From: Patescibacteria group bacterium
GTDB taxonomy: Bacteria > Patescibacteriota > Minisyncoccia > Phycocordibacterales > UBA12079
Length of the DNA: 64,000 nucleotides
Direction of reading: 5' to 3'
NCBI GenBank assembly: GCA_018817595.1
Contig: JAHITU010000007.1
Coordinates: 8,775 to 72,774, forward strand
Positions within the stretch are counted from its first letter, which is position 1. Every line of letters starts with the position of its first letter. The notes beneath the pieces were generated by a model. It saw only the letters and a list, made by a program, of their open reading frames with translations. It ran no database searches and had not been told where the DNA came from. This document shows positions 5,743 through 62,046 of this stretch, in pieces. The position numbers and the translations under genes are program-made.

Positions 5743-6174
5743 ATGAGTGATAATAAAAAAATTAAATTACAGGTTGGAGTAAAAATATTTTTAAAAAATA
5801 AAAATAATAAGTACTTAATTTTACATAGAAATATAGAAAAGTACCCTGATAACGATGGAAACTGGGATATAGTAGGAGGGAGGATTGATCGTGGTATTTC
5901 ACTTTTAGAAAATTTACAAAGAGAGGTAAAGGAAGAAACTCAATTAGATTTAGAAAATAATCCTCAACTTATAGGCGCTCAAGATATCTTACGAGTAAAA
6001 GGACTCCATGTAGTAAGACTAACTTATATTGCTAATATAGAAGGAGACCCCACTTTAAGTGATGAACATGATAGATTTAAATGGCTTTCCATTGAGGGTA
6101 TAAAAAAACTTATTGCTGAGAACAGAATGGATATTTATTCTAAAGAATTGATAGAAAAAGGGTTGTTAAAATAA
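5743..6174 (+). CDS. NUDIX hydrolase
   Basis: Nudix box GGRIDRGISLLENLQREVKEETQL. Confidence 0.75.
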   Translation: MSDNKKIKLQVGVKIFLKNKNNKYLILHRNIEKYPDNDGNWDIVGGRIDRGISLLENLQREVKEETQLDLENNPQLIGAQDILRVKGLHVVRLTYIANIEGDPTLSDEHDRFKWLSIEGIKKLIAENRMDIYSKELIEKGLLK

Positions 6175-7777: not shown

Positions 7778-7945
7778 GAATTAAGATTTAAGATTTAGGA
7801 ATTAAAAATAATGAAGAAAAATTTGCGACTAAAACATTTTAAAAAATGTTCGTCCAACCAAAACTGTGTTTTGGTTTAGGAAGCAAATTCTTCTTCAAAA
7901 AGCTAACACCTAATCCGCCAGCTGGCGGACTAAACAACTAATAAA

Positions 7946-8278: not shown

Positions 8279-10012
8279 ATGAAAAAATCAAGTTTTTTAT
8301 TTAGAATAAAATTTTTGTATGCAGGTTTATTCCTGTTTTTCTTTATTTTAGTTGGTCAATTATATATGATTCAAATAGTTAAGGGTGATGAATATAGTGA
8401 AAAAGCCGACAATCAATATATTAAACCTCAGTATATTTTCAATCGAGGAAATATTTATTTTGAAGATAAAAATGGAAAAAGAATTTCTGCTGCTATGACT
8501 CGCTCAGGTTTCCAATTAACTATTAATCCTTCTTTGATTGAGGATGCAGAAGGCACCTTTAACAAATTATCTCAAATAATAGAAATAGACAAAGAAGACT
8601 TTATGTATCGAGCTGGGAAAAAAGATGATACTTATGAGGTAATAAAAAGACAAATTATAGACGATAAAATATCAAAACAAATAAAAGATTTAAAATTAAA
8701 AGGGGTTACTCTTGAATTAGATAAGTGGCGTTTCTACCCAGGAGATAAATTAGCTTCTCATGTTTTAGGTTTTGTTGGTTACAACGAAGATTCTCTTGAA
8801 GGAATTTATGGAGTGGAAAAATATTATAATTATATATTAAACAGAGAATCAAAAAATCTTTTTGTGAACTTTTTTGCAGAGATTTTTTTGAATGTGAATT
8901 CTGTTATTGATGGAGACGACTCAAAAAAAGAAGGAGATATTGTTTTAACTATAGAACCTACTGTGCAAGAATACTTAGAAACTACATTAGAAGACTTGGA
9001 AGAAAAATGGAGTACTGATTTGGCAGGTGGAATTATAATAGACCCCAATAACGGAGAAATAATCGCTATGGGTTTTTCTCCTTCTTTTGATCCAAATAAT
9101 TTTTCTAAAGCTAAAGATGGAGTGCTTTTTGGAAATCCTATGGTGGAATCTGTATATGAAATGGGTTCTATTATTAAAGCCTTGACCATGGCTATTGGTT
9201 TAGACACTGGTGTGGTTACTGCAGAGACCACCTACAATGACACTGGTTTTAAAACCTTGAATGGAAAGACTTTTTATAATTATGATGGAAAAGCCAGAGG
9301 GGTGGTTCCTATGCAAGAAGTTCTAAATCAGTCTTTGAATATTGGCGCAGCCTTTGTCGAAAACAAAATAGGAAATGAAAGATTTGCAAAATACCTTTTG
9401 GATTTAGGTATCGGGGAAGAAACGGGAATTGATTTACCTAATGAAACTTATGGTTTGGTTTCTAATTTAGAATCCACTCGAGATATTGAATATGCTACTG
9501 CGTCATTTGGACAAGGAATAGCTATGACTCCAATAGAGACAGTTAAAGCTTTATCAGCTTTGGCTAATGGAGGAGTCCTAATAACTCCGCATTTAGTTAA
9601 AGAAATAAAATATAGTGTTTTATCTTCTGATGAAATATCGTATGATGATAATGAAAGGATTTTTAAAGAAGAGACTTCTGATGAAATCAGTCGAATGTTA
9701 GTTCAGGTTGTGGATGAAGCATTGTTAGGAGGAACAGTAAAATCTGAAGATTATACTATCGCCGCTAAGACAGGAACCGCTCAGATGGCAAAGGAAGACG
9801 GAAGAGGGTATTATGATGATAAGTATCTACACAGTTTTTTCGGCTATTTCCCAGCTACTCGTCCTGAGTTTTTAACATTTTTATATGTTGTGGACCCAAA
9901 GAATGTAAATTATGCCTCTCATACTTTAACACAGCCCTTTATGGACATTTTTAAATTTTTAGTTAATTATTATGAAGTGGTACCCGACAGAGTCGGAGTC
10001 GAAAGTCTGTAA
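8279..10012 (+). CDS. ftsI: penicillin-binding protein 2/3 transpeptidase (FtsI-like)
   Basis: SXXK (SIIKAL), SFGQG and KTGTA motifs. N-terminal TM. Confidence 0.85.
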   Translation: MKKSSFLFRIKFLYAGLFLFFFILVGQLYMIQIVKGDEYSEKADNQYIKPQYIFNRGNIYFEDKNGKRISAAMTRSGFQLTINPSLIEDAEGTFNKLSQIIEIDKEDFMYRAGKKDDTYEVIKRQIIDDKISKQIKDLKLKGVTLELDKWRFYPGDKLASHVLGFVGYNEDSLEGIYGVEKYYNYILNRESKNLFVNFFAEIFLNVNSVIDGDDSKKEGDIVLTIEPTVQEYLETTLEDLEEKWSTDLAGGIIIDPNNGEIIAMGFSPSFDPNNFSKAKDGVLFGNPMVESVYEMGSIIKALTMAIGLDTGVVTAETTYNDTGFKTLNGKTFYNYDGKARGVVPMQEVLNQSLNIGAAFVENKIGNERFAKYLLDLGIGEETGIDLPNETYGLVSNLESTRDIEYATASFGQGIAMTPIETVKALSALANGGVLITPHLVKEIKYSVLSSDEISYDDNERIFKEETSDEISRMLVQVVDEALLGGTVKSEDYTIAAKTGTAQMAKEDGRGYYDDKYLHSFFGYFPATRPEFLTFLYVVDPKNVNYASHTLTQPFMDIFKFLVNYYEVVPDRVGVESL

Positions 10013-10040: not shown

Positions 10041-10190
10041 TTACTTCGTAAAAATTCGTAGACGAAAAGCTAAAGCTTTTCGTCTTTGCGAGGAGTGTAG
10101 CGTAGCGAAATGACGAAGCAATCTCTTTACGTTCGTCTCTGCGAGGAGCGGAACGCAGTGGAGCGATGTGGCAGTCCAGAAATAATAAAT
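10041..10190. repeat. MITE-like repeat, tandem pair, with conserved termini CGTCTYTGCGAGGA ... GACGAAGCA(G/A)TC
   Basis: CGTCTTTGCGAGGA...GACGAAGCAATCTC, then CGTCTCTGCGAGGA...GGCAGTCCAGAAAT. Same termini as the copies at 13339, 26521, 41033 and 42575. Confidence 0.55.
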
Positions 10191-11729: not shown

Positions 11730-11961
11730 AAATGATTAGGGGTCGTTCCTCTTAATAAAGATAATTGTAATCTTTAGGCAAAAATTAAAAAGCTAAGATA
11801 ACCGAGGTGCGACCCCTAATTTAAATTTTAAATTATGAAGTCCGATTTCTGTCTGCCCCTGCGCGCCGGCAGGCGTGGGCATAGGCAGGGGTTGGGGTGT
11901 TCAAATGGCTAAAACCTTAATAATAAATAGCCCAACCGGTTGGGCTATTTAATTTACTTCA

Positions 11962-13160: not shown

Positions 13161-13338
13161 TGAATATATTTTAACATATTATATCCCACCTCTTTTTATT
13201 TTATTTGTTGATAAATGCCATACTAGTCCAATCGATTGGAATATTCCAATCGATTGGACTATTTTTTTGTTTATTATTTTGTTTACTTTTTTAATTTTAA
13301 TATTTCTGCTAATATTATAGTAACGCACAACCTCATAA

Positions 13339-13417
13339 CGTCTCTGCGAGGAAGCCTGCACTATTTTTGAAAATTAGAATTTTCAAAAATAGTGCTGGGT
13401 GACGAAGCAGTCCAGAG
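13339..13417. repeat. MITE-like repeat CGTCTCTGCGAGGA-[hairpin]-GACGAAGCAGTCCAGAG
   Basis: Conserved termini. Internal 18-bp hairpin GCACTATTTTTGAAAATT/AATTTTCAAAAATAGTGC. Confidence 0.55.
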
Positions 13418-13633
13418 TTATAAGCAAGCGATTTTTAATGAAAATGTTTTTAAATTATAACAAAAGAATAAATTCAGCTTCAAAAAGCCCTAAACCTTTA
13501 AGCAAAAAGGTTTAGGGCTAATTCCAGACTCGGAAAATTGTTAATTAATAAGCCAACGGAAAAGAGTTTGAGAAATTTGCAAAGAAAATTTCTCCCTAAC
13601 AACCTAATTCCTAAAAGCTAACCTACTAAAAAA

Positions 13634-15223: not shown

Positions 15224-15310
15224 AATTAAAAACGGAGAGGTTGAACCTCTCCGTTTTTAATTTGGATTGAATCTAAACCTGAAGTCAGAATTTTTGTATA
15301 TGAGATCCGA

Positions 15311-15403
15311 CCCAGCACTTTGTTGCAATAGTATAAATATAGTTTATAAGAAATAAATATTATTTTTTAAATAAAAATAAGTAATTTAATTCAAAGTGCT
15401 GGG
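15311..15403. repeat. inverted-repeat element CCCAGCACTTTG-[AT-rich 69 bp]-CAAAGTGCTGGG
   Basis: 12-bp perfect inverted arms. Same arms at 18750-18950 and 41046-41139. Confidence 0.55.
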
Positions 15404-15520
15404 TCGTACCTCTAAATTATTGATAAGTTTAATCTAAATTTGAAATCTAACTCCGCTTAACGGTAGTCTTTACAGACTTTTGACTTTCGACTTTAGACTG
15501 GTTGATGCTATAATATTTTC

Positions 15521-18749: not shown

Positions 18750-18950
18750 CCCAGCACTTTGAGCATAAGCTCAAAAATTTTCAATTTACAATTTACAATT
18801 TTCAACCAATGAAATAATTTTCAATTTACAATGACGAATTTTGGCAGAGCCAAAATTCGTAAACATTGAACATTTAATCATTGAAAATTCATTGAGAATT
18901 GAAAATTGATTATTGGAAATTCTTTGTTTGCTTACAAACAAAGTGCTGGG
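18750..18950. repeat. inverted-repeat element CCCAGCACTTTG ... CAAAGTGCTGGG (201 bp) with internal TTTTCAATTTACAAT direct repeats
   Basis: Same 12-bp arms as at 15311 and 41046. Confidence 0.55.
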
Positions 18951-19663: not shown

Positions 19664-20767
19664 ATGTCTAATAAAATAAAAACAGATAAAATATTCGCAT
19701 TTATAGTATTCCTACTGATTTCTTTTGGGTCTTTTTTATTCTTATCTGCTTCTATGGGTTTATTAGCAAAAGATAATGGAAATTTTCTTAATGTTTTTTT
19801 GAAACAAATTGGTTTTGGTCTAGGTGGGGGTTTAATTCTAATGTTTTTTTTGTCTAGATTAGATTATAGAAAATATAAAAAATATGCTTTTTATATTTTT
19901 CTCGGTTCTCTAATTATGTCCTGCCTAGTTTTTGTTCCAGGGATTGGTTTCGAACATGGAGGAGCGAAAAGATGGCTAGATATATTTGGTTTTTCTTTTC
20001 AACCTGCGGAATTATTAAAAATATCTTTTGTAGTATATTTTGCTGCTTTCTTATCTGCTTTTAAATCAAAATTGAATGATTGGAAGTATAGCATTTTACC
20101 TATTTTAATTTTATTATCTTTTGTTGCAGCTTTATCTTTTTTTCAACCAGATTACGGAACCTTAGTAATTATTATTATTACAGCCTTTGGAATGCTTTTG
20201 ACAGCTGAAGTTAATTTTAAACATCTAAGTATTATTATTGGTTCGGCAACATTGGCAGTTATCCCACTAGCTTTATATAAAACCTATATAATAGAAAGGT
20301 TATTAACTTTCCTAAGACCTGCTCAAGATGCTTTAGGGGCCTCTTATCAAATAAACCAATCATTAGTAGCTATTGGATCTGGAGGTTTTTGGGGAAAAGG
20401 TTTTGGTAAATCTGTTCAAAAGTTTGGGCTTTTACCAGAACCAATGGGTGATTCTATTTTCGCTGTGACTGCTGAGGAATGGGGTTTTGTAGGTTGTTTG
20501 TTTTTGATAACATTATTTTTATTGTTTGCAATAAGAGGTTTAAGGATTGCCACTCATTCAACAGATGTTTTTGGTAGACTATTAGCTATAGGTATTGTTA
20601 TACTAATAGTATCCCAGTCATTTATAAACATAGCCTCCATGTTAGGAATCTTCCCGATGATTGGAATGCCGTTAATTTTTGTTAGTCAGGGAGGAACGGC
20701 TTTGTTGTTTGCTTTGGCCGAGGTAGGTATTTTATTAAATATATCGAAATATAGTAAACAAAAATAA
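19664..20767 (+). CDS. ftsW: SEDS-family peptidoglycan polymerase FtsW/RodA
   Basis: 10-TM SEDS protein with conserved GGAKRWL and QPAELxK motifs. Confidence 0.85.
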   Translation: MSNKIKTDKIFAFIVFLLISFGSFLFLSASMGLLAKDNGNFLNVFLKQIGFGLGGGLILMFFLSRLDYRKYKKYAFYIFLGSLIMSCLVFVPGIGFEHGGAKRWLDIFGFSFQPAELLKISFVVYFAAFLSAFKSKLNDWKYSILPILILLSFVAALSFFQPDYGTLVIIIITAFGMLLTAEVNFKHLSIIIGSATLAVIPLALYKTYIIERLLTFLRPAQDALGASYQINQSLVAIGSGGFWGKGFGKSVQKFGLLPEPMGDSIFAVTAEEWGFVGCLFLITLFLLFAIRGLRIATHSTDVFGRLLAIGIVILIVSQSFINIASMLGIFPMIGMPLIFVSQGGTALLFALAEVGILLNISKYSKQK

Positions 20768-26189: not shown

Positions 26190-26504
26190 ATGGATTTAGA
26201 AGACAAAAAAATAATAAGAGAAAATCTTGAGATAGCTAAAGAAAATCAACAGATGATTAAAAAGATGCGTCGTAGCATGTTTTTAAGCAGTCTAACTCGA
26301 GTAATTTATTGGGTTATTATTATAGGGGCCTCTTTTGGAGCTTATTATTTTTTCCAACCTTATTTAGATATGGCAAAAGATACTTATGGACAAATTCAAA
26401 GTGGAGCCGAAGTGGTTACTGGTGGAGTGACAACTACTACTCAAAACACCACTCAAGCCGTTACATCTTTTTTAGATTTTTTTAAAGATTTAGCTGATTT
26501 TTAA
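26190..26504 (+). CDS. hypothetical small membrane protein
   Basis: 104 aa with a central TM segment. No family recognised. Confidence 0.5.
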   Translation: MDLEDKKIIRENLEIAKENQQMIKKMRRSMFLSSLTRVIYWVIIIGASFGAYYFFQPYLDMAKDTYGQIQSGAEVVTGGVTTTTQNTTQAVTSFLDFFKDLADF

Positions 26505-26520
26505 GAATTAATTCTATTTC

Positions 26521-26640
26521 CGTCTCTGCGACTCAGCACTTTGAATTTTATTACTTACCTTCTTATTATAAATAAATGTTTATTTACATAAACTTTGTTT
26601 ACATTGTTTTAACAAAGTGATGGGGAAGCAGTCCAGAGAA
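26521..26640. repeat. MITE-like repeat CGTCTCTGCGAC-TCAGCACTTTG ... CAAAGTGATGGGG-AAGCAGTCCAGAG
   Basis: Same termini as 13339 and 41033. Abuts the tRNA-Phe trailing element. Confidence 0.55.
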
Positions 26641-26645
26641 TTTAA

Positions 26646-26936
26646 AAAACAGCTAAAAAGCTGTTTTTTATTTTGTGCTGAGGGGCGGGCTCGGTCACGA
26701 ATCACTAAGTCTTTTATTTCGCCCTGCCTACCCCTGCGCGCCGGCAGGCGTGGACAGGCGTGGGCAGGCAGGTTCGCTCATAAAAAACAAAGTGTTCTCA
26801 ACCCCGTCTCGGCTTTTTCTTTTGCTTCGCTCCAGAAAATAGACCTGTGACTTTCGAGCCCGCACGAAAGCAAAGAAGTTTGCTTTCTCCTTCATCCCAA
26901 AATAAAAAAACAGCTAAAAAGCTGTTTTTTATTTTG
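26646..26936 (-). ncRNA. tRNA-Phe trailing structured element (minus strand) carrying an extra GC-rich repeat insert
   Basis: On the minus strand it reads tRNA, terminator, conserved core (GCCGAGACGGGGTTGAGAACACTTTG...ACTTAGTGATTCGTGACCGAGCCCGCCCCTCAGCACA), then a second copy of the terminator hairpin. It contains the GCCCCTGCGCGCCGGCAGG-type GC-rich block. Confidence 0.6.
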
Positions 26937-28263: not shown

Positions 28264-28294
28264 TTTTATTTAATAATTAATTTTAATAATATCA

Positions 28295-28322
28295 ATTATG
28301 TTATTATGCATAATAACATAAT
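28295..28322. promoter_or_regulatory. perfect 28-bp palindrome ATTATGTTATTATGCATAATAACATAAT (downstream side of ArsR paralog 2)
   Basis: Exact second copy at 28672-28699, inside the 48-bp near-perfect palindrome 28662-28709. Confidence 0.5.
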
Positions 28323-28339
28323 ACTTTTATTCTTATAAT

Positions 28340-28633
28340 TTATTCTTTTAAATTTAAAATTTTTTCAAAAGAAAGTAAAAAGTGTATACCTTTTTTTGTA
28401 ATTATATGCTCCACAGCAAGTCCATTATATCTTTTATATATAAGACCAACTTTTTCTAATCTTTGAATATGAACAGCTCCTGTTGAGTAATTTATTTTTA
28501 AAATATTTAGAATTTCTTCGACATTTAATTTAGGTTTTTGATTAATAAGAATTAAAATTCTTATTCTTGTTTTGTTGGCAGTAGCTTTTGAAAATAACTC
28601 CAATAATTTTATTTGTTTCCCTGTGAAATTCAT
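28340..28633 (-). CDS. ArsR/SmtB-family winged-HTH transcriptional regulator (paralog 2)
   Basis: 97 aa, paralog of the 2599-2892 product. Divergent from the P-type ATPase gene. Confidence 0.7.
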   Translation of the reverse strand: MNFTGKQIKLLELFSKATANKTRIRILILINQKPKLNVEEILNILKINYSTGAVHIQRLEKVGLIYKRYNGLAVEHIITKKGIHFLLSFEKILNLKE

Positions 28634-28661
28634 ATTTTATTGTAAATTAATTTGTAATAAA

Positions 28662-28709
28662 AATATTAACAATTATGTTATTATGCATAATAACATAATA
28701 GTTAATATT
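28662..28709. promoter_or_regulatory. 48-bp near-perfect palindrome in the divergent ArsR/P-type ATPase intergenic region; putative operator
   Basis: AATATTAAC-A-ATTATGTTATTATGCATAATAACATAAT-A-GTTAATATT with one central-arm mismatch. Confidence 0.5.
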
Positions 28710-34743: not shown

Positions 34744-34898
34744 AAAGTTGAAATTTGAGGTCCGATCTCTGAATTAAAATAATAATGATCTTTAGTAATT
34801 TGCTTGGTTTTACCAGTGCTGAGATCGTACCTCTAAATTATTTTAATGAAGCAACCCAGAAAAAATTATAAGCTAAAAAATAACTAAACTATAACTAT

Positions 34899-41032: not shown

Positions 41033-41153
41033 TTCGTCTTTGCGACCCAGCACTTTGTTATAATCATATAAATAAAATTTATTAAAAATAAATAATAATT
41101 GTAAGATAAAAAATAAGTAATTTTATTCAAAGTGCTGGGGAAGCAATCTAGAA
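41033..41153. repeat. MITE-like repeat CGTCTTTGCGAC-CCAGCACTTTG ... CAAAGTGCTGGGG-AAGCAATCTAGAAA
   Basis: Conserved termini and 12-bp inverted arms. Lies immediately upstream of the Bro-N gene. Confidence 0.55.
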
Positions 41154-41176: not shown

Positions 41177-42001
41177 ATGAAAACTAATAAAAAAAATTTA
41201 AAAAAAATAAAGCCAATAATTTTTCAAGAAAAAGAGGTTCGAAGAATTTGGGATGAGAAAAAAGAGGAGTGGTATTTTTCTGTTATTGATATTGTTTCAA
41301 TTCTTACTGAACAAATTGATTTTAAAAAAGCTAAAAGTTATTGGACAACTCTTAAAAAACGATTAAAAGATGAAGGAAGTCAGTTGGTCACAGATTGTGA
41401 CCAACTGAAATTAAAATCTGCCGATGGGAAATTTTATTTAACAGATGTAGCAGACACAAGAACTATTTTTAGATTAGTTCAATCAATTCCTAGTAAAAAA
41501 GCAGAACCTTTTAAGTTATGGTTGGCTAAAGTTGGAAATGAAAGAATAAATGAAATTTATGATCCTGAAATAGCTATTAATCGAGCAATTAAAACATATC
41601 AAAGAAAAGGTTATGACGAAAAATGGATAAACCAAAGATTAAAATCAATTGAAATTAGAAAAGAATTAACTGATGAATGGAATAAACGAGGAGTAACCAA
41701 AGATGTGGAATACGCTATTTTAACTAATGAGATTTTAAAATCTTGGAGTGAGATGAATACTCAAGAATATAAGAAATTTAAGGGTTTAAAGAAAGATTCT
41801 TTGAAAGATAATATGACTAATTTAGAATTAGTTTTAAATATGTTAGCAGAAACTTCTACTACAGAAATTAGTAAGACAGAAAAACCACAAAATTTTAATG
41901 AAAATAAAAAAGTAGCTAAAAAAGGAGGAACTATAGCAAAAAAAGCAAAAATTGAGCTAGAAAAGAAGTTAAAAAGAAAGATATTAAAAGGTAAAAATTA
42001 A
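41177..42001 (+). CDS. Bro-N/KilA-N domain protein (DinD-like, phage antirepressor-type)
   Basis: N-terminal F..KEVRRIWDEKKEEWYFSVIDIVSIL Bro-N signature and a lysine-rich C-terminus. ORF start trimmed out of the upstream repeat. Confidence 0.65.
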   Translation: MKTNKKNLKKIKPIIFQEKEVRRIWDEKKEEWYFSVIDIVSILTEQIDFKKAKSYWTTLKKRLKDEGSQLVTDCDQLKLKSADGKFYLTDVADTRTIFRLVQSIPSKKAEPFKLWLAKVGNERINEIYDPEIAINRAIKTYQRKGYDEKWINQRLKSIEIRKELTDEWNKRGVTKDVEYAILTNEILKSWSEMNTQEYKKFKGLKKDSLKDNMTNLELVLNMLAETSTTEISKTEKPQNFNENKKVAKKGGTIAKKAKIELEKKLKRKILKGKN

Positions 42002-42116
42002 TAAGTGAACAACCTGTGGAAAAAAGAAGATGTTATTGATTTGTTAGCTTGATATCTTTAAAAAAGATTTAAGAAAAAGAGATACAAAAATAAAAAACTT
42101 TGATATAATATTTATT

Positions 42117-42569
42117 ATGGATAAAGAAACAAAAATAAGAAAAGAAGAAAGAGATAATTTCACTATTGTTTTGGAGGGTCTTCGTTCTGATTTCAAAATG
42201 TTTGGAGAGGGTCTTAGTGGTGTTAATGAGAGTCTAGGTAATAAAATAAATGAAGTTAATGAAAATCTAAGTAATAAAATAAATGTAGTTAATGAAAACC
42301 TAAGTAATAGATTAGATCATGTTGCGAAAAAAGTAGACATGAATTTTGAAGAGATTGGAAATATTAAAACAGAATTAAATGAAATAAATAATCATTTAGA
42401 TACTATAGATGGTCGTCTTGATAATATTGAAAAAGAAGTAGTATCTATAAGAAAAGATTTTGATTTTGTGAAAAATGAATTAAATTTAAAAGTTGATATT
42501 GATTATATAAAAGGTATTGAAAAACGATTAGAAAAAGTTGAAAAGCATTTAGAATTAAAAACAGCATAA
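42117..42569 (+). CDS. hypothetical coiled-coil protein
   Basis: 150 aa. Heptad-like repeats NEVNENLSNKINVVNENLSN. Confidence 0.5.
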   Translation: MDKETKIRKEERDNFTIVLEGLRSDFKMFGEGLSGVNESLGNKINEVNENLSNKINVVNENLSNRLDHVAKKVDMNFEEIGNIKTELNEINNHLDTIDGRLDNIEKEVVSIRKDFDFVKNELNLKVDIDYIKGIEKRLEKVEKHLELKTA

Positions 42570-42574
42570 CCTTA

Positions 42575-42649
42575 CTGTCTTCGCGAGGAATAAGTATTTT
42601 TTTTAATTTTTTAAAAAATAAAAAATACTTCTGACGAAGCGAACTATAG
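42575..42649. repeat. MITE-like repeat variant GTCTTCGCGAGGAA ... GACGAAGCGAAC
   Basis: Same terminal motifs. Lies immediately downstream of the coiled-coil gene. Confidence 0.45.
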
Positions 42650-46906: not shown

Positions 46907-47263
46907 ATTGGCTCTATCGTCTAACGGTTATTGGAATTAAAAGCAAATTTCTTTGCTTTTAATCCGGTTCTGAGCGATAGCGAAGAAATGACCGATGTTT
47001 ACGAGGTCATAGGATAAGCCTTCGTTGAAGGCGATGTCTTTGAAATATAGCAGACAATGTTAATTTAAAATATAATATATAGTAATGGCCTTATCGTCTA
47101 ATGGTTATTGGAATTAAAAGCAAATTTCTTTGCTTTTAATCCGGTTCTGAGCGATAGCGAAGAAATGACCGATGTTTACGAGGTCATAGGATAAGCCTTC
47201 GTTGAAGGCGATGTCTTTGAAATATAGTAGACAATGTTAATTTAAAATATAATATATAGTAAT
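46907..47263 (+). repeat. two tandem 181-bp units, each starting with a copy of tRNA-Glu nt 1-22, directly upstream of the intact tRNA-Glu
   Basis: Units at 46907-47087 and 47088-47263 are about 98% identical. Each holds GGC(T/C)(C/T)TATCGTCTAA(C/T)GGTTA plus inverted copies of tRNA segments (GAAGGCGATGTC is the reverse complement of tRNA GACATCGCCTTC). Confidence 0.7.
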
Positions 47264-47335
47264 GGCCTTATCGTCTAATGGTTAGGACATCGCCTTCTCA
47301 AGGCGGCAATCCGGGTTCGATTCCCGGTAAGGTCA
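47264..47335 (+). tRNA. tRNA-Glu (anticodon CTC)
   Basis: Acceptor GGCCTTA/TAAGGTC, D-stem GTCT/GGAC, anticodon loop TTCTCAA, T-loop TTCGATT. Confidence 0.85.
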
Positions 47336-47518
47336 CAAATCAAAAATAACAGTCTTTCTGACTGTTATTTTTTGATTCTAGTGAATCTCCTGTGGAGATA
47401 ATCGAAGGTCGGAAGAAAATCCGAGATTTTCTGAGACGGGGTCGAGAACACTTTGTAAAATTTGAGCAAAGCGAAAAATTTTACTTAGTGATTCGTGATC
47501 GATTCCCGGTAAGGTCAC
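47336..47518 (+). ncRNA. conserved structured element trailing tRNA-Glu; ends in a direct copy of the tRNA 3' end
   Basis: Terminator, CGAAGGTCGGAAGAAAATCC...GAGACGGGGTCGAGAACACTTTG...TTTGAGCAAAGCGAAAAA...ACTTAGTGATTCGTGATCGATTCCCGGTAAGGTCAC. Confidence 0.6.
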
Positions 47519-47811
47519 AAAAAACAAAAACCTACACTTTATCGACCGTCAATAAAGTGTAGGTTTTTGTTTTGTTTTGCAAAAAGTAGGGGTAGCACCC
47601 CTACTTTTTAAATTATAAGATATTGTTGAAAAACTTCATAATTTCTTTATTTTTTCTTTACTGAAACTTCATAATAAATATGTATAAATTTGTAATTAGT
47701 GTGTTCTTACAGAAATGAAAGGAGGTGATATACTATTCTTTTGAGAGTTATCTTAGTAAATATTTTTTCACTAAATTTAAACCTAAATTAAAAAAGACCT
47801 AGGAGGTCAAA

Positions 47812-48246
47812 ATGAAAACTAGAATTAGTTTGATAGTTGGAATTATCTTTTCACTATTGATGTTTGTTGGTGTGAGTTTTTTGCAAGCTGATGTTATTGC
47901 GGCTTATGATACCAATGTAGCCGTTCCTGGTTTAAGTTGGTTGGATCATACTTATGTATGTGTAGATAATTCTTCTAATTGTCGATCTTTTCCAAGTGGA
48001 AGTGCTACAACAGGTGGTTCTGTTGTGACAAGCGGATCTGCTACAGATTCCCAAGTATTAAATTCTTTATGTTATGCTGCGGGTAGTATGACTTATCTTG
48101 TTCAAGGAGTTTGTCATCAACACTCAAACCGTATGTTGTATCCTATTAATAAAGAGTTGGATTCTTCAGTTAATGGATACAGTACTAGTCGTTGGTTATA
48201 TGGTACTTACGGGACAAATTTTTGGTCAATTTACTGTAATTATTGA
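47812..48246 (+). CDS. secreted Cys-rich small protein (signal peptide)
   Basis: Strong RBS AGGAGGTCAAAATG, N-terminal signal peptide, 6 Cys, Gly/Ser/Thr-rich, higher GC than its neighbours. Confidence 0.6.
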   Translation: MKTRISLIVGIIFSLLMFVGVSFLQADVIAAYDTNVAVPGLSWLDHTYVCVDNSSNCRSFPSGSATTGGSVVTSGSATDSQVLNSLCYAAGSMTYLVQGVCHQHSNRMLYPINKELDSSVNGYSTSRWLYGTYGTNFWSIYCNY

Positions 48247-48281
48247 TATCTTCTAACTTATAATTTATAGGAAAAGAGAAA

Positions 48282-48851
48282 ATGTTTAAAATAAATCAAA
48301 TAGTATTTTTTTCAACAATGTTGTTTGTTATTCTTTTTGGTGGTGTTGCATTTGCTCAAAATCAACAATTAGAAATAAGAGATGGTGAGCTTTATCTTTT
48401 AGAAGGTTTAAAAGAAGATTCCAATATTGTTTTCAGAAGACAATATTACAGAGAACAAACAAGAAGTATTTATGAAAATAAAGAGTTGTTTGAGGATAAA
48501 GAACTTCTTCTTGTTAAAGATTTTAGTTTTGCTATAGATGAAGCTCTGGGAGTTGATTTTCCTACAAAAAAGAAAGAGCTTCTTCAGAAATATCAATACA
48601 ATATGTTAAAACAGAAAACTTCCTTTGATAAACTTTACGAAAACGGTTTATTAGATGAAAAGTTATATTTAAGATTTGTTTCTGATATTTTTGAACAAAG
48701 TTTACATGAATCAGCTTATGTTTTAAATGATGAGGAATTTTTCTTGTTATTTTGTATTAACAAAAATCAAATAGACGGACTTTTTTATGGAATTGCGAAT
48801 ATAGGGCGTCTTGATCATGAAAAGCTTGTTAATGATGAAAGAAAAAAATAA
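48282..48851 (+). CDS. secreted hypothetical protein
   Basis: Signal peptide and an RBS. Followed by a terminator at 48888-48910. Confidence 0.55.
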   Translation: MFKINQIVFFSTMLFVILFGGVAFAQNQQLEIRDGELYLLEGLKEDSNIVFRRQYYREQTRSIYENKELFEDKELLLVKDFSFAIDEALGVDFPTKKKELLQKYQYNMLKQKTSFDKLYENGLLDEKLYLRFVSDIFEQSLHESAYVLNDEEFFLLFCINKNQIDGLFYGIANIGRLDHEKLVNDERKK

Positions 48852-48907
48852 AATAAACATTTAATAAATTATTTTTTAACCTCTAGTGTTTGTAACACTA
48901 GAGGTTT

Positions 48908-49273
48908 TTAATCATTTGTAGAAAAACTTAATATAAAGCTCCCAATTATTATGAAAATTAAAGGTATTGTAATCATGACTATACCTATAGGAGATTTTGT
49001 AAATAAAAATAATATATTTTCTATACGAACATTCATAACAATTAAAGCGGATAATCCTGAAAAGATAAATATTTTACCGGCGAGACGAGGACTGTTTTTG
49101 ATAAAAAATAGTGCAATTATTGAAAAAAGTGAAATTATTAAAAATAATATTCCTGTGATAAATTCCTTTGTTTGAACACCCCCAGAAAAAGCATAATAAA
49201 ATAAGCTTTGGAGTGAGAAAATTAAAACACTAAGAATCCCAAATATATATATTAAAAATTTTTTATTTTTCAT
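48908..49273 (-). CDS. small 4-TM membrane protein
   Basis: 121 aa. Four hydrophobic helices. Confidence 0.55.
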   Translation of the reverse strand: MKNKKFLIYIFGILSVLIFSLQSLFYYAFSGGVQTKEFITGILFLIISLFSIIALFFIKNSPRLAGKIFIFSGLSALIVMNVRIENILFLFTKSPIGIVMITIPLIFIIIGSFILSFSTND

Positions 49274-49334
49274 CTAAATAAATTATAACACACATATAAA
49301 ATAGTTAAATATAATTATGGTATAATAAAATTTA

Positions 49335-50690
49335 ATGAAAAAGAGAATAATCATTTTAATATTTGCTATTATAATCCTATTTATTTCTTGGAATATGATA
49401 AGCAGAAATAGTGGTGTTAATTATATTGTTCAAAGTGAACAAATAAAATCATTAAATTGGAATAATGTCGTTCCAGATATAACAGAACCAGTATTTGAAG
49501 AAAGAGAGTTTTTAATAAAACCAGAAGAATATATTGAAATAACACTTTGTGGTAAAAAAGTAGAAGCTGAAAACGTTGTTTTTGGTGGTTTTAGTTTTAC
49601 TAAAGCTTTTGAGAGAATTGTTAAAGAAAATGTTGAGGCCAGTTTTTGTGGAAATGAAGGTAATTTGAATCTTGATTTTTATGATAGAGTTCTTGGTGTT
49701 ATAGTCAAAGAACAGAGATGGAATCAAATAGAAAATAATATTGATTATATTCCTGAAAAATACGGACCAACTAATATGTATGTTATGTCTTTATATTCTA
49801 AGTCTGACAAAAATCAATTGAGTGATTCTTTTAGTCGAACTAGTTTTGTTTATAAATTTGATTTTAATAAAAAAGAGGTTTTATTACAAATGGCTATTGA
49901 TGGAAGTTTCCGCAAAGTAGGTTTGATTAAAGAAAGTGATTTTAATGATTCATTAAAATCACTTTCAGTAGTTGATGAATTAAAAATTCGTTTCAAAAAT
50001 ATTGATAAAACATCAGATATTCAATCAGACCAATCAATTATTTGGTGGAATGATGAGAATGGTTATAATCTTAATTTTCCAGCCAATGAATCATTTTTTG
50101 TAGCAAAAGAAGAAAAGAATCATATTGACCAATCGCTTATTGCCTATGAATATTTTTATAAGGAATTGGCTTTAGTTAAACAAGTATTTACAAACAGAGG
50201 TTTTATTTTAAATAAAAACAATTCTTCTGATGATTTTACAGATAATCGTTTTTATGATTACATTCAAGCCTATGAAAGAGGAAATGAATTATGTGTTGTG
50301 TTGGTTAATTTAGATTGTACTTCATATAGAAGTGGTAATTATGACAAAGCTTGTCATTTAGTTTTGTCTTGTGGAAATTCTTTAGAGGAAGCCCAAATAG
50401 AACAAATCCCTCTTTTAAACGCCTTAGATTATAAAAATAGAAATAATATTGCTATGATTAGAAACCAATTAGGTGATTTTTATGAAGTAATTGTAAGTGG
50501 ACGGCGAGGGGGTTCAACAGCTATTATGAAAAAAGAAGGTGAGAATTACAGAGTTTTATATATAAGCCAAGAAGATCCATTTTGTAGTCTAATAGAAGAA
50601 GAAAATATACCCAATGAAGTTTTAAAAGCATTTGAAATAAATGGTTGTTTTGGTGATAATGGAAGTAATTATAAAAGATTTAATGAGTAG
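49335..50690 (+). CDS. large secreted/membrane-anchored hypothetical protein
   Basis: 451 aa, N-terminal signal anchor, several Cys. Confidence 0.55.
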   Translation: MKKRIIILIFAIIILFISWNMISRNSGVNYIVQSEQIKSLNWNNVVPDITEPVFEEREFLIKPEEYIEITLCGKKVEAENVVFGGFSFTKAFERIVKENVEASFCGNEGNLNLDFYDRVLGVIVKEQRWNQIENNIDYIPEKYGPTNMYVMSLYSKSDKNQLSDSFSRTSFVYKFDFNKKEVLLQMAIDGSFRKVGLIKESDFNDSLKSLSVVDELKIRFKNIDKTSDIQSDQSIIWWNDENGYNLNFPANESFFVAKEEKNHIDQSLIAYEYFYKELALVKQVFTNRGFILNKNNSSDDFTDNRFYDYIQAYERGNELCVVLVNLDCTSYRSGNYDKACHLVLSCGNSLEEAQIEQIPLLNALDYKNRNNIAMIRNQLGDFYEVIVSGRRGGSTAIMKKEGENYRVLYISQEDPFCSLIEEENIPNEVLKAFEINGCFGDNGSNYKRFNE

Positions 50691-50698
50691 AGAATAAA

Positions 50699-51025
50699 AT
50701 GAATTATTTAACTTTAATTGTCGTTGGAATAGCAGGGGTTATTGTAGGGTCTTATTTTGGAATGCAGAAAGGGAATGGTGGAAAGAAAAATATACTTTCA
50801 AAACAAGCTGAAGCTAAGATCGAGAACAAACAAAAAATTTTAGAATTTTTAAAAAATAACGAAAACCTGCCTGCCGGTGAGGCAGGAATCACTAACAATA
50901 ATGTTGAGGAATTATGTTCTGTTTCCAATGCCACAGCAGAAAGATATTTAGATGAGTTGGAAAGGGAAGAAAAATTAGTTCAACATGGTAAAATAGGGAC
51001 AGGTGTATTTTATACGTTAAAATAA
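50699..51025 (+). CDS. TM-anchored winged-helix DNA-binding protein
   Basis: N-terminal TM. C-terminal wHTH (ATAERYLDELEREEKLVQHGKIGTGVFYTL). Contains the in-frame GC-rich palindrome CCTGCCTGCCGGTGAGGCAGG. Confidence 0.5.
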   Translation: MNYLTLIVVGIAGVIVGSYFGMQKGNGGKKNILSKQAEAKIENKQKILEFLKNNENLPAGEAGITNNNVEELCSVSNATAERYLDELEREEKLVQHGKIGTGVFYTLK

Positions 51026-51112
51026 GAACACTTTAATCAATTAACTCAACGAGTTGAGTTAATTAAAAAGGGAAGGATAACTTAAAATATATTAAAAATG
51101 TTAAAATAAAAT

Positions 51113-51748
51113 ATGTTAGTTTTTATTGATGAATCCGGAGATCCAGGATTAAAAATGAATAGCGGTTCAAGTCGGTTTTTTACTATTGCTTTGGTAGTAT
51201 TTGAAGATTATGATGAGGCTACTAATTGTGATAGAAGAATTGAATTATTAAAGAAAGAATTAAGTTGGAGTGATAATTCAGAATTTCATTTTAAGAAAAA
51301 CTCTTTAAGAGTTAGGGATTCGTTTTTTAAAGCTGTTATGCCTTATAATTTTTTCTATTATGGTATTGTCATAAACAAAGATCCTAACAAACTTTATGGA
51401 GAAGGTTTCAAGAATAAATCTTCTTTTTATAAATATGCATGTAGTCTTGTTTTTGAGAATGCAAAAGATAAATTAAGTAAATCAATTGTTGTTATAGATA
51501 AAAATGGAAATAATGAATTTCGTAATCAATTAGCTAAATATTTAAGAAGAAAGATGAACATTGATAAAAAGAAGATTAGAAAAGTTAAGATGCAGAAATC
51601 TGAATCCAACAATTTGTTACAGTTGGTTGATTATGTTGCTGGGGCAATAAATAGATCTATTGTTAACTCAAGAAAAGATTCTCAGGTTTTTAGAAAAATG
51701 CTTAGTCGTAAAGAAATGTATGTTCAAGTGTGGCCAAAAAAAGAATAA
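51113..51748 (+). CDS. DUF3800 family protein
   Basis: N-terminal MLVFIDESGD and C-terminal LQLVDYVAGAI motifs, both characteristic of DUF3800. Confidence 0.65.
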   Translation: MLVFIDESGDPGLKMNSGSSRFFTIALVVFEDYDEATNCDRRIELLKKELSWSDNSEFHFKKNSLRVRDSFFKAVMPYNFFYYGIVINKDPNKLYGEGFKNKSSFYKYACSLVFENAKDKLSKSIVVIDKNGNNEFRNQLAKYLRRKMNIDKKKIRKVKMQKSESNNLLQLVDYVAGAINRSIVNSRKDSQVFRKMLSRKEMYVQVWPKKE

Positions 51749-51954
51749 AAGAAAACCACCGAACCTATCCTTGCGGAACGCAGTGATAAACACTACAGTT
51801 TGGTTCGGTGGCACTTCCTTAATTGAAACTATAACATTTTATATCAAAAAATCAAGTAAACTGTGGATAACTAAAACATTGTAAATAAAATTTAAATTAG
51901 CTCTAAAAGAGCAGAACGGCTCAACGACTTGAGCTATTTAAAATAAATGAAAAT

Positions 51955-52632
51955 ATGAAAAAAATATACTTAAAAATAATATTATGTTTGTTTATTTTTA
52001 TACCTTCTTTTTCTTTAATATCCGCTTCAAGCTTGAATGATTTTGACTTATTTTTAAGTAAAAAAATATATAATGACTGTAAAGACCAAAAAATCAATTT
52101 AAGATCTAATTCTACTTTAGGTATTTTATTAGTGGAATATTTTAATATAGAAAAGATAACACCTGATTTAGAATTTATTTCTATAGAACCTAAACAAACA
52201 AATATAAACACAGTAATAGAATGGATATCTAGATATAAACCTTATGCAACTTATATTAATTACCCCGAAAATCCACAATTATATGAAGGTCTTAATAAAT
52301 TAGGGTATAAATCAACACAGGGTAAAGAGTTTTCTTTTTATTCTGATGGGCTTAATATTTTTAATTGTGGAGGTAAAAATATGGATATTAATGGAACTCA
52401 ATATTTTTGGGATAAAGAACTTATTGAATTACCTAAGATAGAAAATTATTACGATAATAACTATACATTATTTGGTTTAAATATTATTCAAAATGGTGGA
52501 ATTACAATATTTGGAATTACTATTTTATCTTTTAGTATTGTGGGAGGTCTAACCTTTTTATCTATCGGATCACTACTTATTCCTTTTATTAGAAAAAAAT
52601 TTATAGTGATAATAAAACGAAAGGTAAATTAA
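51955..52632 (+). CDS. secreted protein with C-terminal TM anchor
   Basis: Signal peptide and a C-terminal hydrophobic anchor plus KKFIVIIKRK stop-transfer. Confidence 0.5.
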   Translation: MKKIYLKIILCLFIFIPSFSLISASSLNDFDLFLSKKIYNDCKDQKINLRSNSTLGILLVEYFNIEKITPDLEFISIEPKQTNINTVIEWISRYKPYATYINYPENPQLYEGLNKLGYKSTQGKEFSFYSDGLNIFNCGGKNMDINGTQYFWDKELIELPKIENYYDNNYTLFGLNIIQNGGITIFGITILSFSIVGGLTFLSIGSLLIPFIRKKFIVIIKRKVN

Positions 52633-52662
52633 AATAAAAATATAACACCTCAACGACTTGAG

Positions 52663-52875
52663 GTGTTAAAAATAACACAAATAACCCCAAAATCAGATGA
52701 AATTCGAGGAAGTGAGGGAAAATATTTTGAGTTTTTAAAAAGAGGTACGACTTCGGAATTGGTAAAACTAAACAAATTACTAAAGATTGCTGGTATACAC
52801 GTTAAGAAGTCGGACCTCGAAAACTTAAATATTTTCCAGAGGGCTGACGAAGAAGTTCGTTGGTTTTTAGATTAG
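52663..52875 (+). CDS. small hypothetical protein; a degenerate paralogous fragment follows at 52881-52960
   Basis: 70 aa. Downstream fragment ...SKLSEVRGGKKKYLE resembles ...KSDEIRGSEGKYFE. Confidence 0.4.
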   Translation: MLKITQITPKSDEIRGSEGKYFEFLKRGTTSELVKLNKLLKIAGIHVKKSDLENLNIFQRADEEVRWFLD

Positions 52876-53000
52876 GTTGTAAATAACTCAAAATTAAGTG
52901 AAGTTCGAGGAGGTAAGAAAAAATACCTTGAGTCGTATCGGGCATACGACGAAAGGTATTTTTTTGAAACCGACAATGAAATTCCTTAATTTTGGGTTAT

Positions 53001-59010: not shown

Positions 59011-59220
59011 ATTTAATTATTTTAGTATTAAGTATTATGTAGTAAGTATTATGGAGGCCCGACTCCTGCTTATGGCAGGTTCAGGAAAATATTTTTCATC
59101 GTATGCTCGATACGACTCAAAATATTTTCCTGCTCTTCCTCGAACTGTATTCAATTTTGGGATTATTTAAAAAATTAAGCAATTAACTTTAAGGTCGGCA
59201 TTACCGACCTTTTTAAATTA

Positions 59221-59638
59221 TTCATTACAGCGCTCCAAGCGCTGTAATCATGTCGCAAAATTACTTGGACACCCGGTGTCCAAGTGGTTTTAATTTCTAG
59301 AAATTCTGATTGCGTCAAAATTAATCACAGTTCGCTAAAGGTGAACCATCTCTTTGAGCCTGTCCGTCTCAGATGTGGTGATAGCGAAACTATAACTATA
59401 GATGGTTACAAAATCAATCCAGAATCCATTCAACGAAGCAAGTCAGAAAATAATTTAAACTATTCCAATTGATTGGAATAGTTAAAAAATATCGCAAAAT
59501 TACTTGGACACCCGGTGTCCAATGATTCTAATTTTTAGAAATATTGATTTTTCTTGCTAATTCCTTAAATTTAATGTATAAAATCAACAGAAGTTTGGAT
59601 GAAAATTGAATAAATATTAAATAAAAAGGGGAGTAAAG
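59221..59638 (+). promoter_or_regulatory. conserved ~420-bp leader module, copy 1 (structured, with two palindromic operator-like sites overlapping promoter-like hexamers)
   Basis: Hairpin TTACAGCGCTCCAAGCGCTGTAA. ACTTGGACACCCGGTGTCCAAGT at 59263-59285 and 59502-59522. TTGGAC-17-TTTAAT geometry. Nearly identical to 60645-61106. Confidence 0.6.
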
Positions 59639-60592
59639 ATGAAAGCTTTAAAACCGAAAAGTTCAGAATTGTTTGTAGATTCTGTTAAAAGTAAAAAGGA
59701 ATGGATTATGAAAATAATTCTCTTTATTTTGGGAATTTTTATTTTGTTCTGTCTTTGGTGTGTCGGAACTGAGGCTGTGGCTGGAATAACCCAGCAAGAA
59801 ATAACCAATGACGGGGTAAACTCAGGAATGGGCGAAATCCCACAGATTTATAAAAAGGATGGAAAATTCTTTATTCATAAATCTCCAGCGGATATGGTTG
59901 TTGATGAGGCTCCAAAAGAATGGGGGATTTCGTCAGAAGATCAAGAGTCATTGGCTCTTGGTAAAAAGAGTTTTGTCTCTGTTTCTTCAAAGAAAATTGA
60001 ATTTATTTTTTGGGGAAAGTGGATCCCTGAAACCTTGACCGTTATTTACAAAAAAATAGTTAGAATTGAGGATGGAAAATTTTTTCTTTATCATCTTGAT
60101 CCTGTTATGGAACCTAAAATCCAATTTGTACTTCTAACCCTATCCTTCTTTGTCTTTAGTTGTGGTCTGGTTAATGGAAGATTTGCAGGTGTAAATAATG
60201 GTGGATTCTTATGGATTCCTCTTTTTTTATTAGGTCCTATAATTGTGTTGTTAATTATTTTCCTAATTCCATTAATTAATAAAATAATTTTAGAATTCGA
60301 AATTATTTTATTAGCAATTATTTTTTGTTTTATTTTATTATATTACTTATTCCATAAAAACAAAAAAAAAATAGTAACAACTAATGTAATTTCAATTTCA
60401 ATAATCATAATAATAATTGCAGTTTCATTTTTTTCTTGCAATTATTTACAGAATTTTTACTATTTTTTCCTTTTATATTTTCTTTCATATTTTATTTCTT
60501 TTTTCTTTACTCGAAGAAAAGAAGTAAAAGAAAAGAGGAAAGACATGAATTTTTCAAGAATAAGTGGAGTAGGGGGTTCTAAAAAAAATTAA
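59639..60592 (+). CDS. hypothetical polytopic membrane protein (paralog A)
   Basis: N-terminal signal anchor, soluble domain of about 110 aa, several TM helices. Paralog of the 61107-61877 product. Confidence 0.6.
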   Translation: MKALKPKSSELFVDSVKSKKEWIMKIILFILGIFILFCLWCVGTEAVAGITQQEITNDGVNSGMGEIPQIYKKDGKFFIHKSPADMVVDEAPKEWGISSEDQESLALGKKSFVSVSSKKIEFIFWGKWIPETLTVIYKKIVRIEDGKFFLYHLDPVMEPKIQFVLLTLSFFVFSCGLVNGRFAGVNNGGFLWIPLFLLGPIIVLLIIFLIPLINKIILEFEIILLAIIFCFILLYYLFHKNKKKIVTTNVISISIIIIIIAVSFFSCNYLQNFYYFFLLYFLSYFISFFFTRRKEVKEKRKDMNFSRISGVGGSKKN

Positions 60593-60644
60593 TCAGTGAA
60601 TACAACCCCAACCGGTGAGCCTTGTGCCCACCGGTTGTTTTATT

Positions 60645-61877: not shown

Positions 61878-61920
61878 TTGAAAACACAAACCCCAACCGG
61901 TGAGCCTTGTGCCCACCGGT

Positions 61921-61990
61921 TGTTTTATTTATTACAGCACTCCGAGCGCTGTAATCATGTCGCAAAATCACTTGGGAATCCAATTTCCAA
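61921..61990 (+). promoter_or_regulatory. partial third copy of the leader 5' module upstream of dnaX
   Basis: ATTACAGCACTCCGAGCGCTGTAATCATGTCGCAAAAT + CACTTGGGAATCCAATTTCCAAGTG, a variant palindrome with the same arms. Followed by a TATAAT-like -10. Confidence 0.5.
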
Positions 61991-62046
61991 GTGGATTTAT
62001 TTTTGTAAAAATTACCTAATCTATTATTTTTTGATATAATATTTCC

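Follow-up and report, generated by a model that had tools for sequence, protein, structure and literature searches.

Hairpin repeats in a Patescibacteria contig: a probable variant class of the CGTC-tagged, Ssn-motif kind

Two described systems combine short bacterial hairpin repeats with a CGTC tag at one end. In the CGTC-tagged repetitive extragenic palindromes (REPs), whose families CGTC-1 to -4 include dRS3 of Neisseria and RPE-4/RPE-6 of Rickettsia, an unpaired CGTC (or TGTC/CCTC) tag precedes a hairpin, whose 8-9 bp stem opens with A/T pairs and carries a 4-5 nt loop, and the repeat closes with an unpaired tail of consensus CCA; these repeats occur in five phyla, mostly after open reading frames (ORFs) and mostly as dimers with the tags outside, and they 'apparently lack a dedicated transposase' (Di Nocera, De Gregorio, Rocco 2013, BMC Genomics 14:522, PMC3733652). 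The 94-aa Neisseria GIY-YIG protein SsnA binds the repeat NTS (CGTCATTCCCGCGMAVGCGGGAATCYRG, a superset of dRS3) solely as single-stranded DNA and on the tagged strand only; it cuts a few nucleotides upstream of the repeat and is inactive on double-stranded DNA and on RNA (PMC11893778). Homologues of SsnA (family cd10448) are found across phyla and are flanked by 'Ssn-related motifs' (SRM), the NTS-ssnA-NTS layout resembles an insertion sequence (IS), and in Neisseria the Ssn system reduces transformation by NTS-carrying DNA; the association of GIY-YIG genes with hairpins is thus already published (Chenal et al. 2025, Nat Commun 16:2388, PMC11893778). Here six hairpin repeats, copies A-F, are described from a window of 64,000 nucleotides of Patescibacteria DNA (GenBank assembly GCA_018817595.1, contig JAHITU010000007.1, positions 8,775 to 72,774). 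These repeats are very probably of the CGTC-tagged REP / Ssn-motif kind and form a variant class of it.

The window comes from a metagenome contig of 74 kb, and its GC content is ~31%. The nearest relatives of its proteins come from Patescibacteria / 'Pacebacteria' metagenome-assembled genomes (MAGs), and the nearest relative identified is L004 (GCA_900089805.1, 82% MurE identity). All six copies lie on the + strand, like most genes of the window, and start at 10081, 10134, 13339, 26521, 41035 and 42576. Their 5' end is CGTCTYTGCGA and their 3' end GAAGCARTCYAG, with GCGA...GAAGC(A/G)(A/G) common to all copies. When up to two mismatches are allowed, the 5' end CGTCTYTGCGAGGA has 5 matches in the window against 0.17 expected, a number reached in none of 100 shuffles; the matches are at 10081, 10134, 13339 and 42576, together with one doubtful site, and under relaxed criteria 26521 and 41035 are found as well. 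Only copy C has the full 3' end GACGAAGCAGTCCAGAG without a mismatch, and copy D departs from this sequence at two positions. Consequently, of the conserved termini proposed in the original prediction, which described a family resembling miniature inverted-repeat transposable elements (MITEs), the 5' end stands and the full 3' end does not.

Copy A (10081-10126, CGTCTTTGCGAG-GAGTGTAGCGTAGCGAAATGA-CGAAGCAATCTCT) starts 68 nt past the ftsI stop, and copy B (10134-10179) stands behind it in head-to-tail tandem, with an intact 5' half and a decayed 3' half (GATGTGGCAGTCCAG). Copy C (13339-13417) consists of CGTCTCTGCGAGGA, a 17-bp AT-rich hairpin and TGACGAAGCAGTCCAGAG, and is located in the divergent dprA-serS spacer. 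Copy D (26521-26638) is formed by CGTCTCTGCGA...GAAGCAGTCCAGAG around a 93-bp inner palindrome, 16 nt past the stop of ORF 26190-26504, and copy E (41035-41151) by the outer motif around a 94-bp inner element, 73 nt past the mraY stop and just before a Bro-N gene. Copy F (42576-42645; TGTCTTCGCGAGGA, an AT-rich hairpin, TGACGAAGCGAACT) begins 6 nt past the stop of a coiled-coil gene. All six copies, including the tandem pair after ftsI, are therefore where they had been predicted, as is their preference for gene 3' ends (A, D, E and F, 6-73 nt past stops) and a divergent spacer (C, between dprA and serS). Five of the six tagged copies follow a + strand gene, B only as the tandem partner of A, and C is the exception; the arrangement is one of solo copies and one head-to-tail pair, with no tags-outside dimers. 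A possible seventh relative without the CGTC tag is present at 7820-7889 (+), where AATTTGCGA and GAAGCAAATT enclose two small hairpins, and a near-identical copy of it is found at a non-orthologous site in L004 (6112-6191).

The motif is widely distributed. An exact-pattern scan of one genome per species with CGTCTYTGCGA-N5-35-GAAGCARTC, which has 20 fixed bases, returned at least 119 loci in at least 15 phyla. The matches listed include Bacteroidota, Alpha-, Beta- and Gammaproteobacteria, Chloroflexota, Planctomycetota, Nitrospirota, Acidobacteriota, Omnitrophota, Firmicutes and others, five Patescibacteria MAGs among them. Their lengths peak sharply at 27 nt (50 of the 135 matches listed), whereas chance matches would be spread evenly over the gap, which indicates that almost all scan matches are real. 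The foreign consensus is CGTCTTTGCGAG-CGNAG-CGAAGCAATCCAG, and the CGTC tag is invariant in an alignment of 50 copies. A covariance model, R1, built from these 50 foreign copies only, with the window copies left out, matches copy A (10073-10131, E 4.5e-4), copy C (13331-13420, E 3.3e-3) and both copies of L004, and gives a weak match to copy B (E 2.6). The copies are accordingly not confined to this region, as the original prediction had considered they might be: L004 carries two. Nor was any of them recognised as a known structured RNA such as a riboswitch: no Rfam family matches any copy, either at the gathering score or at E values up to 10. By eye, the hammerhead, the k-turn, the sarcin-ricin loop, domain IV of the signal recognition particle RNA and attC were also considered, and none fits the 2x3 GA/GAA loop or the ends. 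Among the matches listed, dimers have the tags outside in 76 cases, the tags inside in 16 and a tandem arrangement in 17.

Each copy can be read as the same succession of parts, namely a CGTC tag (TGTC in F), a YYGC/GCRR stem, a GA/GAA purine loop, a closing pair, a tip and a tail. The stem is CTGC/GCAG in B, C and D and TTGC/GCAA in A and E; in F, which also has the variant GCGAAC, it covaries to TTCGC/GCGAA. At the first stem position T stands opposite T in CTTT forms and an A-T pair is present in CATT forms. The closing pair is G-C in A, C and F and C-G in D and E, the 3' half of B being decayed. A second GA/GA loop is frequent ('GGA...TGAC' of A, C and F), and B retains the GGA side only. 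The tail reads TCCAG in B, C and D, TCTAG in E and CCAG in the foreign consensus. Copy C displays the complete set, with a CGTC tag, CTGC/GCAG stem, GA/GAA loop, G-C pair, GA/GA loop, 17-bp hairpin and CCAGAG tail, and the arms of its hairpin resemble the CCCAGCAC element. The stem of the outer motif comprises only 4-5 Watson-Crick pairs before the GA/GAA mismatch loop, and the tip ranges from 3 nt to ~90 nt.

This pairing is borne out by covariation. Across 148 R1 hits the tip-closing pair is G-C in 124, A-U in 16 and G-U in 1. The stem is mostly predetermined by the scan pattern, in which only its Y-R pair is free to vary, and this pair varies coherently in the scan loci (T-A, C-G and a few T-G). 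An alternative register suggested by DNA folding, CTTTGC/GCGAAG, was rejected, as the covariation of the closing pair and of the Y-R pair fits the other register only. Folding energies were compared with those of shuffled sequences. Calculated as RNA, the z-scores of the window copies are -0.18 (A), -1.46 (B), -6.5 (C), -2.1 (D, borderline), -6.8 (E) and -2.9 (F); calculated as DNA, they are -0.26 (A), -0.42 (B) and -7.6 (C). The prediction that each core is always a strong hairpin is therefore correct for C, E and F and borderline for D, and it fails for A and B, which fold no better than shuffles.

L004 has minimal 26-nt copies, CGTCTCTGCGAG-CTTG-CGAAGCAGTCC, at 5891 and 11386, so that the long hairpins are optional decorations of a small core. 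In the 27-nt class, 36 of 50 copies have GCGNAGC as their tip, and every base is represented at N; C-GNA-G is seen in 67 of 142 tips, whereas shuffling of the tips yields 12.4. DNA mini-hairpins of the sequence d(GCGNAGC) have melting temperatures of 70-76 C, and their RNA counterparts are much less stable (Hirao and co-workers; review PMC13037366). They are the exact tip of the commonest 27-nt form, and the tips of copies A and B are GCGTAGC and ACGCAGT, respectively; however, the mini-hairpin is a motif of physical chemistry and not a genetic element, and copies C-F carry long AT-rich hairpins instead. Stability as DNA combined with weakness as RNA fits a role in single-stranded DNA. Moreover, a tip of this type explains why the minimal forms are not rated by nearest-neighbour folding.

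Clustering of the ORFs that flank the scan matches brought out a ~100-aa GIY-YIG gene in four unrelated genomes, and no RAYT. In a sample of 80 metagenome GIY-YIG loci selected solely by protein profile, the motif was present within 400 nt of the gene in 77, usually on both sides and with the tags outward. Most commonly, one copy in sense orientation precedes the start codon by 3-150 nt and one in antisense orientation follows the stop at a distance of 0-30 nt, so that a hairpin-ended unit of ~400 bp contains the GIY-YIG gene; gene-less motif pairs also occur in other bacteria. The partner protein is a single domain of ~95 aa, which matches Pfam GIY-YIG (E 4e-14) and, weakly, the UPF0213 structure 1zg2 (E 4e-4). 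A 'Slx1-like/UPF0213' label, which would follow from this weak structural match and from Dunin-Horkawicz 2006, is not pressed here, since SsnA was placed in cd10448 by Chenal et al. Carriage by phages is unlikely, as a relative of the nuclease is encoded on one viral contig only. The original prediction had looked to a transposase, TnpB or IscB-like gene as the partner. Instead the motif is accompanied elsewhere by the nuclease gene; no transposase, TnpB or integrase is present among the proteins of the window, and no transposase or integrase was found in the loci of its relatives.

Two further features of the GIY-YIG loci were recorded. In L170, L162, L172 and ~20 others the stop codon abuts the antisense hairpin (...TGA|GATTGCTTCG...) at a distance of 0-3 nt, which indicates that the end of the gene and the end of the repeat are tightly coupled. 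Five loci (L133, L143, L177, L193 and L195) hold arrays of alternating sense and antisense copies, 10-18 within 1.6-3.3 kb, and such long regular arrays are reminiscent of the clustered repeats of Neisseria and Wolbachia.

Comparison with related genomes shows that the copies differ in presence and absence between relatives. The ftsI-murE spacer is 376 nt in the window, where it holds A and B, and 153 nt in L004, where it has no CGTC copy and a different hairpin; in L006 and L008 it is 0 nt and 35 nt, respectively. Copy C is absent from the dprA-serS spacer of L004, in which the downstream hairpin is conserved, and conversely some L004 copies lie at sites without one in the window. At E < 1, R1 detects nothing in L006-L009 and L210-L212; L209 gives a single weak match. 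With regard to the insertion polymorphism that the original prediction proposed to check, presence/absence differences are seen at the A/B and C sites, both of which lack CGTC copies in L004. From these comparisons, the window copies appear to be recent gains or losses in the Paceibacteria lineage.

A further difference concerns the gene pair between E and F, which consists of a Bro-N gene (41177-42001, Pfam Bro-N E 9e-8) and a coiled-coil gene (42117-42569), both on the + strand (41177-42569). In L211 and L212, mraY is followed directly by a TPR gene and murJ, with no such pair, and in L209/L210 the mraY-TPR spacer holds three other genes, which come after a decayed F-like copy. This absence and replacement mark the pair as an insertion/deletion (indel) in a variable spot. 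The indel is bracketed by E and F, and the pair may, as proposed, have moved as a module, with a possible part played by the repeats.

The palindromes inside D and E are members of a second repeat. Its 12-nt arm CCCAGCACTTTG has 9 matches in the window against 0.14 expected, and inverted arm pairs are found at 15311/15403, 18750/18950, 26532/26624 and 41046/41139; the first, second and fourth had been predicted, and the third lies inside D. The element in E (41046-41139) has perfect 12-bp arms, CCCAGCACTTTG/CAAAGTGCTGGG, and the same orientation as the copy at 15311, and the element in D (26532-26624) is inverted with respect to both. The copy at 15311-15403 is enclosed, just after serS, in a different outer hairpin (GAGATCCGA...TCGTACCTC, 15302-15412), and a longer palindromic element of 201 bp at 18750-18950 displays the same 12-bp arms in a third context. 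Since the inner element recurs in three outer settings, and D and E hold it in opposite orientations, it is a DNA unit of its own that comes to lie in hairpin tips. It behaves like a separate insertable palindrome, and its arrangement may have arisen by insertion or by inversion between its own arms. The flank string predicted to be shared, GATCGTACCTCTAAATT, is present at 34823 only, and the true shared flank is TCGTACCTCTAAATTATT, at 15404 and 34825. A tentative and rather doubtful extension of these findings is that the TTGCGAG/CGAAGCAA hairpin is a separate, very widespread SRM class, which is found in at least 15 phyla, is served by a GIY-YIG subfamily of its own and escapes the published SRM string. 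Its tip would tolerate anything between a GNA triloop and a nested palindrome, and in Patescibacteria the CCCAGCACTTTG palindrome would specifically colonise such tips in either orientation. If true, this would amount to hairpin-tip-targeted insertion by a single-strand DNA mechanism in a DNA-uptake-dependent phylum.

The account as a whole is that the window repeats are gene-less solo derivatives of the CGTC-REP/SRM system, and this is probably correct. The copies would descend from the paired-hairpin GIY-YIG unit, a nuclease of the Ssn type, encoded elsewhere in the genome or once present, would spread or cut them, and the second palindromic element would have colonised the hairpin tip in two of them. 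Located on the coding strand just after genes, the copies are also expected to be transcribed and may have a secondary role as 3'-untranslated region (3'-UTR) hairpins. That the copies are or were substrates of an Ssn-type nuclease in this lineage is a real possibility that falls short of being probable. The GC skew is positive along the entire window and, judging by it, the tagged (+) strand is the lagging-strand template as well as the coding strand, so that the window cannot separate a mechanism linked to single-stranded DNA at replication from one linked to transcription.

Several observations weigh against this account. The minimal forms fold no better than shuffles in the nearest-neighbour calculation, and the structure consequently rests on covariation at few positions. 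R1 misses copies D, E and F, whose tips are long or whose ends deviate. The window copies are solo or tandem on one strand, whereas the motif occurs mostly as inverted pairs elsewhere, and we infer their mobility from indels only. No GIY-YIG gene is present in the window or in ~150 kb of the relatives' loci, and the partner protein elsewhere is assigned through Pfam GIY-YIG and the weak 1zg2 match, not through cd10448. The published SRM string, HGTCWYN(0-2)YYVSBRHN(0-5)WNVSBRGN(0-2)RNCYNB, matches the Neisseria NTS but hits neither the window nor any of the 80 GIY-YIG loci, although its tag, HGTCWY, and its tail, RNCYNB, do fit this class. Finally, CGTC-tagged REPs have stems of 8-9 bp and loops of 4-5 nt, as opposed to the imperfect stem and variable tip found here.

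The original prediction favoured a lineage-specific MITE, i.e. deletion derivatives of an IS of this genome that are moved by its transposase. Conserved ends, varying cores, intergenic positions and indels between relatives would all be expected of such an element, and the inner CCCAGCACTTTG element, with its 12-bp inverted arms, three contexts and two orientations, has a similar appearance. The outer motif, however, recurs near base-for-base in at least 15 phyla, its ends are not inverted repeats of each other, and by inspection no target-site duplications are present at the outer or the inner borders; the window is without a transposase, TnpB or integrase, and the partner gene found elsewhere is that of a GIY-YIG nuclease. 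The MITE reading is thus unlikely, and for the outer motif it is largely refuted, whereas the description 'REP-like' in the same prediction holds. If the hairpins at gene 3' ends were instead recombination sites for gene cassettes, similar to integron attC sites, their variable tips and single orientation, and the bracketing by E and F of an indel whose place is taken by other genes in L209/L210, would be accounted for, as would the Bro-N module between direct copies. The window, though, has no integrase and no RYYYAAC/GTTRRRY cores, most copies lie behind housekeeping genes (ftsI, mraY) and the known partner is a nuclease, which makes this explanation highly improbable.

A cis-acting structured RNA, such as a 3'-UTR stabiliser, a processing site or a protein-binding motif conserved for its RNA fold, would be in keeping with the seven window copies that are all on the coding strand, five of them 6-73 nt past a stop codon, with the covarying pairs and conserved unpaired purines, with the RNase R and RNase III encoded in the window and with the 3'-UTR effects reported in the REP literature. 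Against this, the motif forms mostly inverted pairs elsewhere, and its solo copies among the scan matches listed show no clear gene-strand bias (17 on the same strand as the gene that ends nearby and 11 on the opposite strand), which argues against a general RNA function. Furthermore, no Rfam family is matched even at E 10, the GNA mini-hairpin tip is of the DNA type, SsnA leaves the RNA form unbound, and close relatives lack copies at the corresponding sites. An RNA motif is therefore a rather unlikely primary identity, but it may describe a secondary effect in this genome, exerted by the transcribed hairpins on mRNA 3' ends. A location after genes and the presence of hairpins would also suit intrinsic transcription terminators, but this explanation is hardly tenable, as the terminator scan called none of the copies, no T run follows any of them, a separate canonical intrinsic terminator (26643-26670) starts 5 nt after copy D, and C lies in a divergent spacer.

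Several other repeats were recorded. A palindrome, AGACGAAAAGCTAAAGCTTTTCGTCT, at 10060-10085 overlaps the CGTC tag of copy A, and 24 of the 26 nt of this hairpin recur in L004 at ~5843-5866, a non-orthologous site, ~25 nt upstream of a CGTC copy. A second hairpin family of ~77 nt, GAGGTYCGA ... TCGYACCTC, with the core CCTCTTAATWAAGATARTTGTAATCTTTAG in some copies, is represented in the window at 34757-34833 (+), 52742-52818 (-), 15302-15412 (+) and 11738-11816 and in L004 at 9854-9931 and 20202-20279; it fills the ftsI-murE spacer of L004, where the window has A and B, and has no Rfam match. The hairpin family GAGGTCCGA...TCGTACCTC is kept apart from the CGTC motif as a separate repeat. Upstream of serS, a hairpin AAATTCAGCTTCA..AGCCCTAAAC..GTTTAGGGCTAATYCCAGAYTC (window 13476-13540, L004 13385-13450) is conserved amid an unconserved spacer. 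It may be a leader element of serS, and no T-box was found there by Rfam.

Elsewhere in the window, a MarR/HTH gene of 97 aa is present in two diverged copies, 78% identical and on opposite strands (2599-2892 + and 28340-28633 -). Within the regions 2531-2932 and 28288-28700, each gene copy has a ~30-nt palindrome such as TATTATACGATTATATATAATCGTATAATA on either side; these palindromes could be operator sites, or the whole a small mobile cassette. A 177-nt tandem duplication (46909-47262, 98% identical) abuts tRNA-Glu (47264-47336), and copies of the tRNA 3' end recur at 47491. Beyond these repeats lie ~5 kb of hypothetical genes and a DUF3800 gene with a DUF3800-IX RNA (51751-51812), and in L211/L212 only one small gene is found between murJ and dnaE; 46909-52900 is probably an element integrated at the tRNA, in which no integrase was recognised. 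Runs of a 9-nt periodic repeat (AAAGTCNNN / GACTTTNNN) occur at the ends or starts of many genes, on both strands, in the window (123, 9991, 15459, 24663, 34387, 36540, 38042, 39870 and 40960) and in L004 (5710-5740 and 13450-13540). GC-rich palindromes, CCTGCCTGCCGGCAGGCAGG / CCCCTGCGCGCCGGCAGGCG, stand out in this 31% GC genome and are common to other Patescibacteria MAGs (window 11849, 18162, 25332, 26724 and 40987; L004 11795; L038). Finally, a block of ~1.4 kb is tandemly repeated at 59182-62003, with 76-97% identity in pieces, and includes hairpins AATTACTTGGACACCCGGTGTCCAAGT and the paralogous ORFs 59639-60592 and 61107-61877.

With these assignments, what looked like an oddity of one small genome becomes a member of a hairpin/single-strand DNA nuclease system that has been characterised biochemically. 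The published repeat definition misses a class that is common across phyla, which bears on repeat counts and on the nuclease/site pairs that have been proposed as tools for single-stranded DNA, and recognition of the repeats helps to avoid spurious small ORFs being called on them. For Patescibacteria, which have dprA and are regarded as living on imported DNA, sites for a nuclease that attacks incoming single strands would bear on the control of transformation, a link that is hypothetical.

The repeats may finally be set beside the systems that they resemble. REPIN/RAYT and IS200/IS605 (Bertels and Rainey 2011; Ton-Hoang et al. 2012) likewise combine short hairpin repeats, often in inverted doublets, with a single small nuclease gene between two repeats and with recognition of the hairpin in single-stranded DNA; their tag is GTAG and their enzyme an unrelated HUH tyrosine transposase, in contrast to the CGTC tag found here. 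With the CGTC-tagged REPs the repeats have in common an unpaired CGTC/TGTC tag, an unpaired CCA-type tail, positions after ORFs, an occurrence in several phyla and, for this class in other genomes, the predominance of tags-outside dimers, whereas no dedicated enzyme was found for those REPs and Patescibacteria are outside their five phyla. The NTS/SRM-SsnA system differs in its stem, which is ATTCCCGC/GCGGGAAT in NTS and TTGCGAG/CGAAGCAA here, and the present class has G-A type mismatches, one extra base and a free tip length; the window is without an ssn gene, its copies are solo and all on one strand, and the class is known from sequence alone. Nevertheless, the 5' tag (CGTC followed by A/T and T), the 3' tail AATCCAG (which fits ...RNCYNB), the directionality with a hairpin in between, the many intergenic copies and, in other genomes, the single-domain GIY-YIG gene of ~95 aa flanked on both sides are all features of NTS/SRM-SsnA. 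In comparison with these systems, the repeats are a known kind in variant form, newly seen in this lineage.

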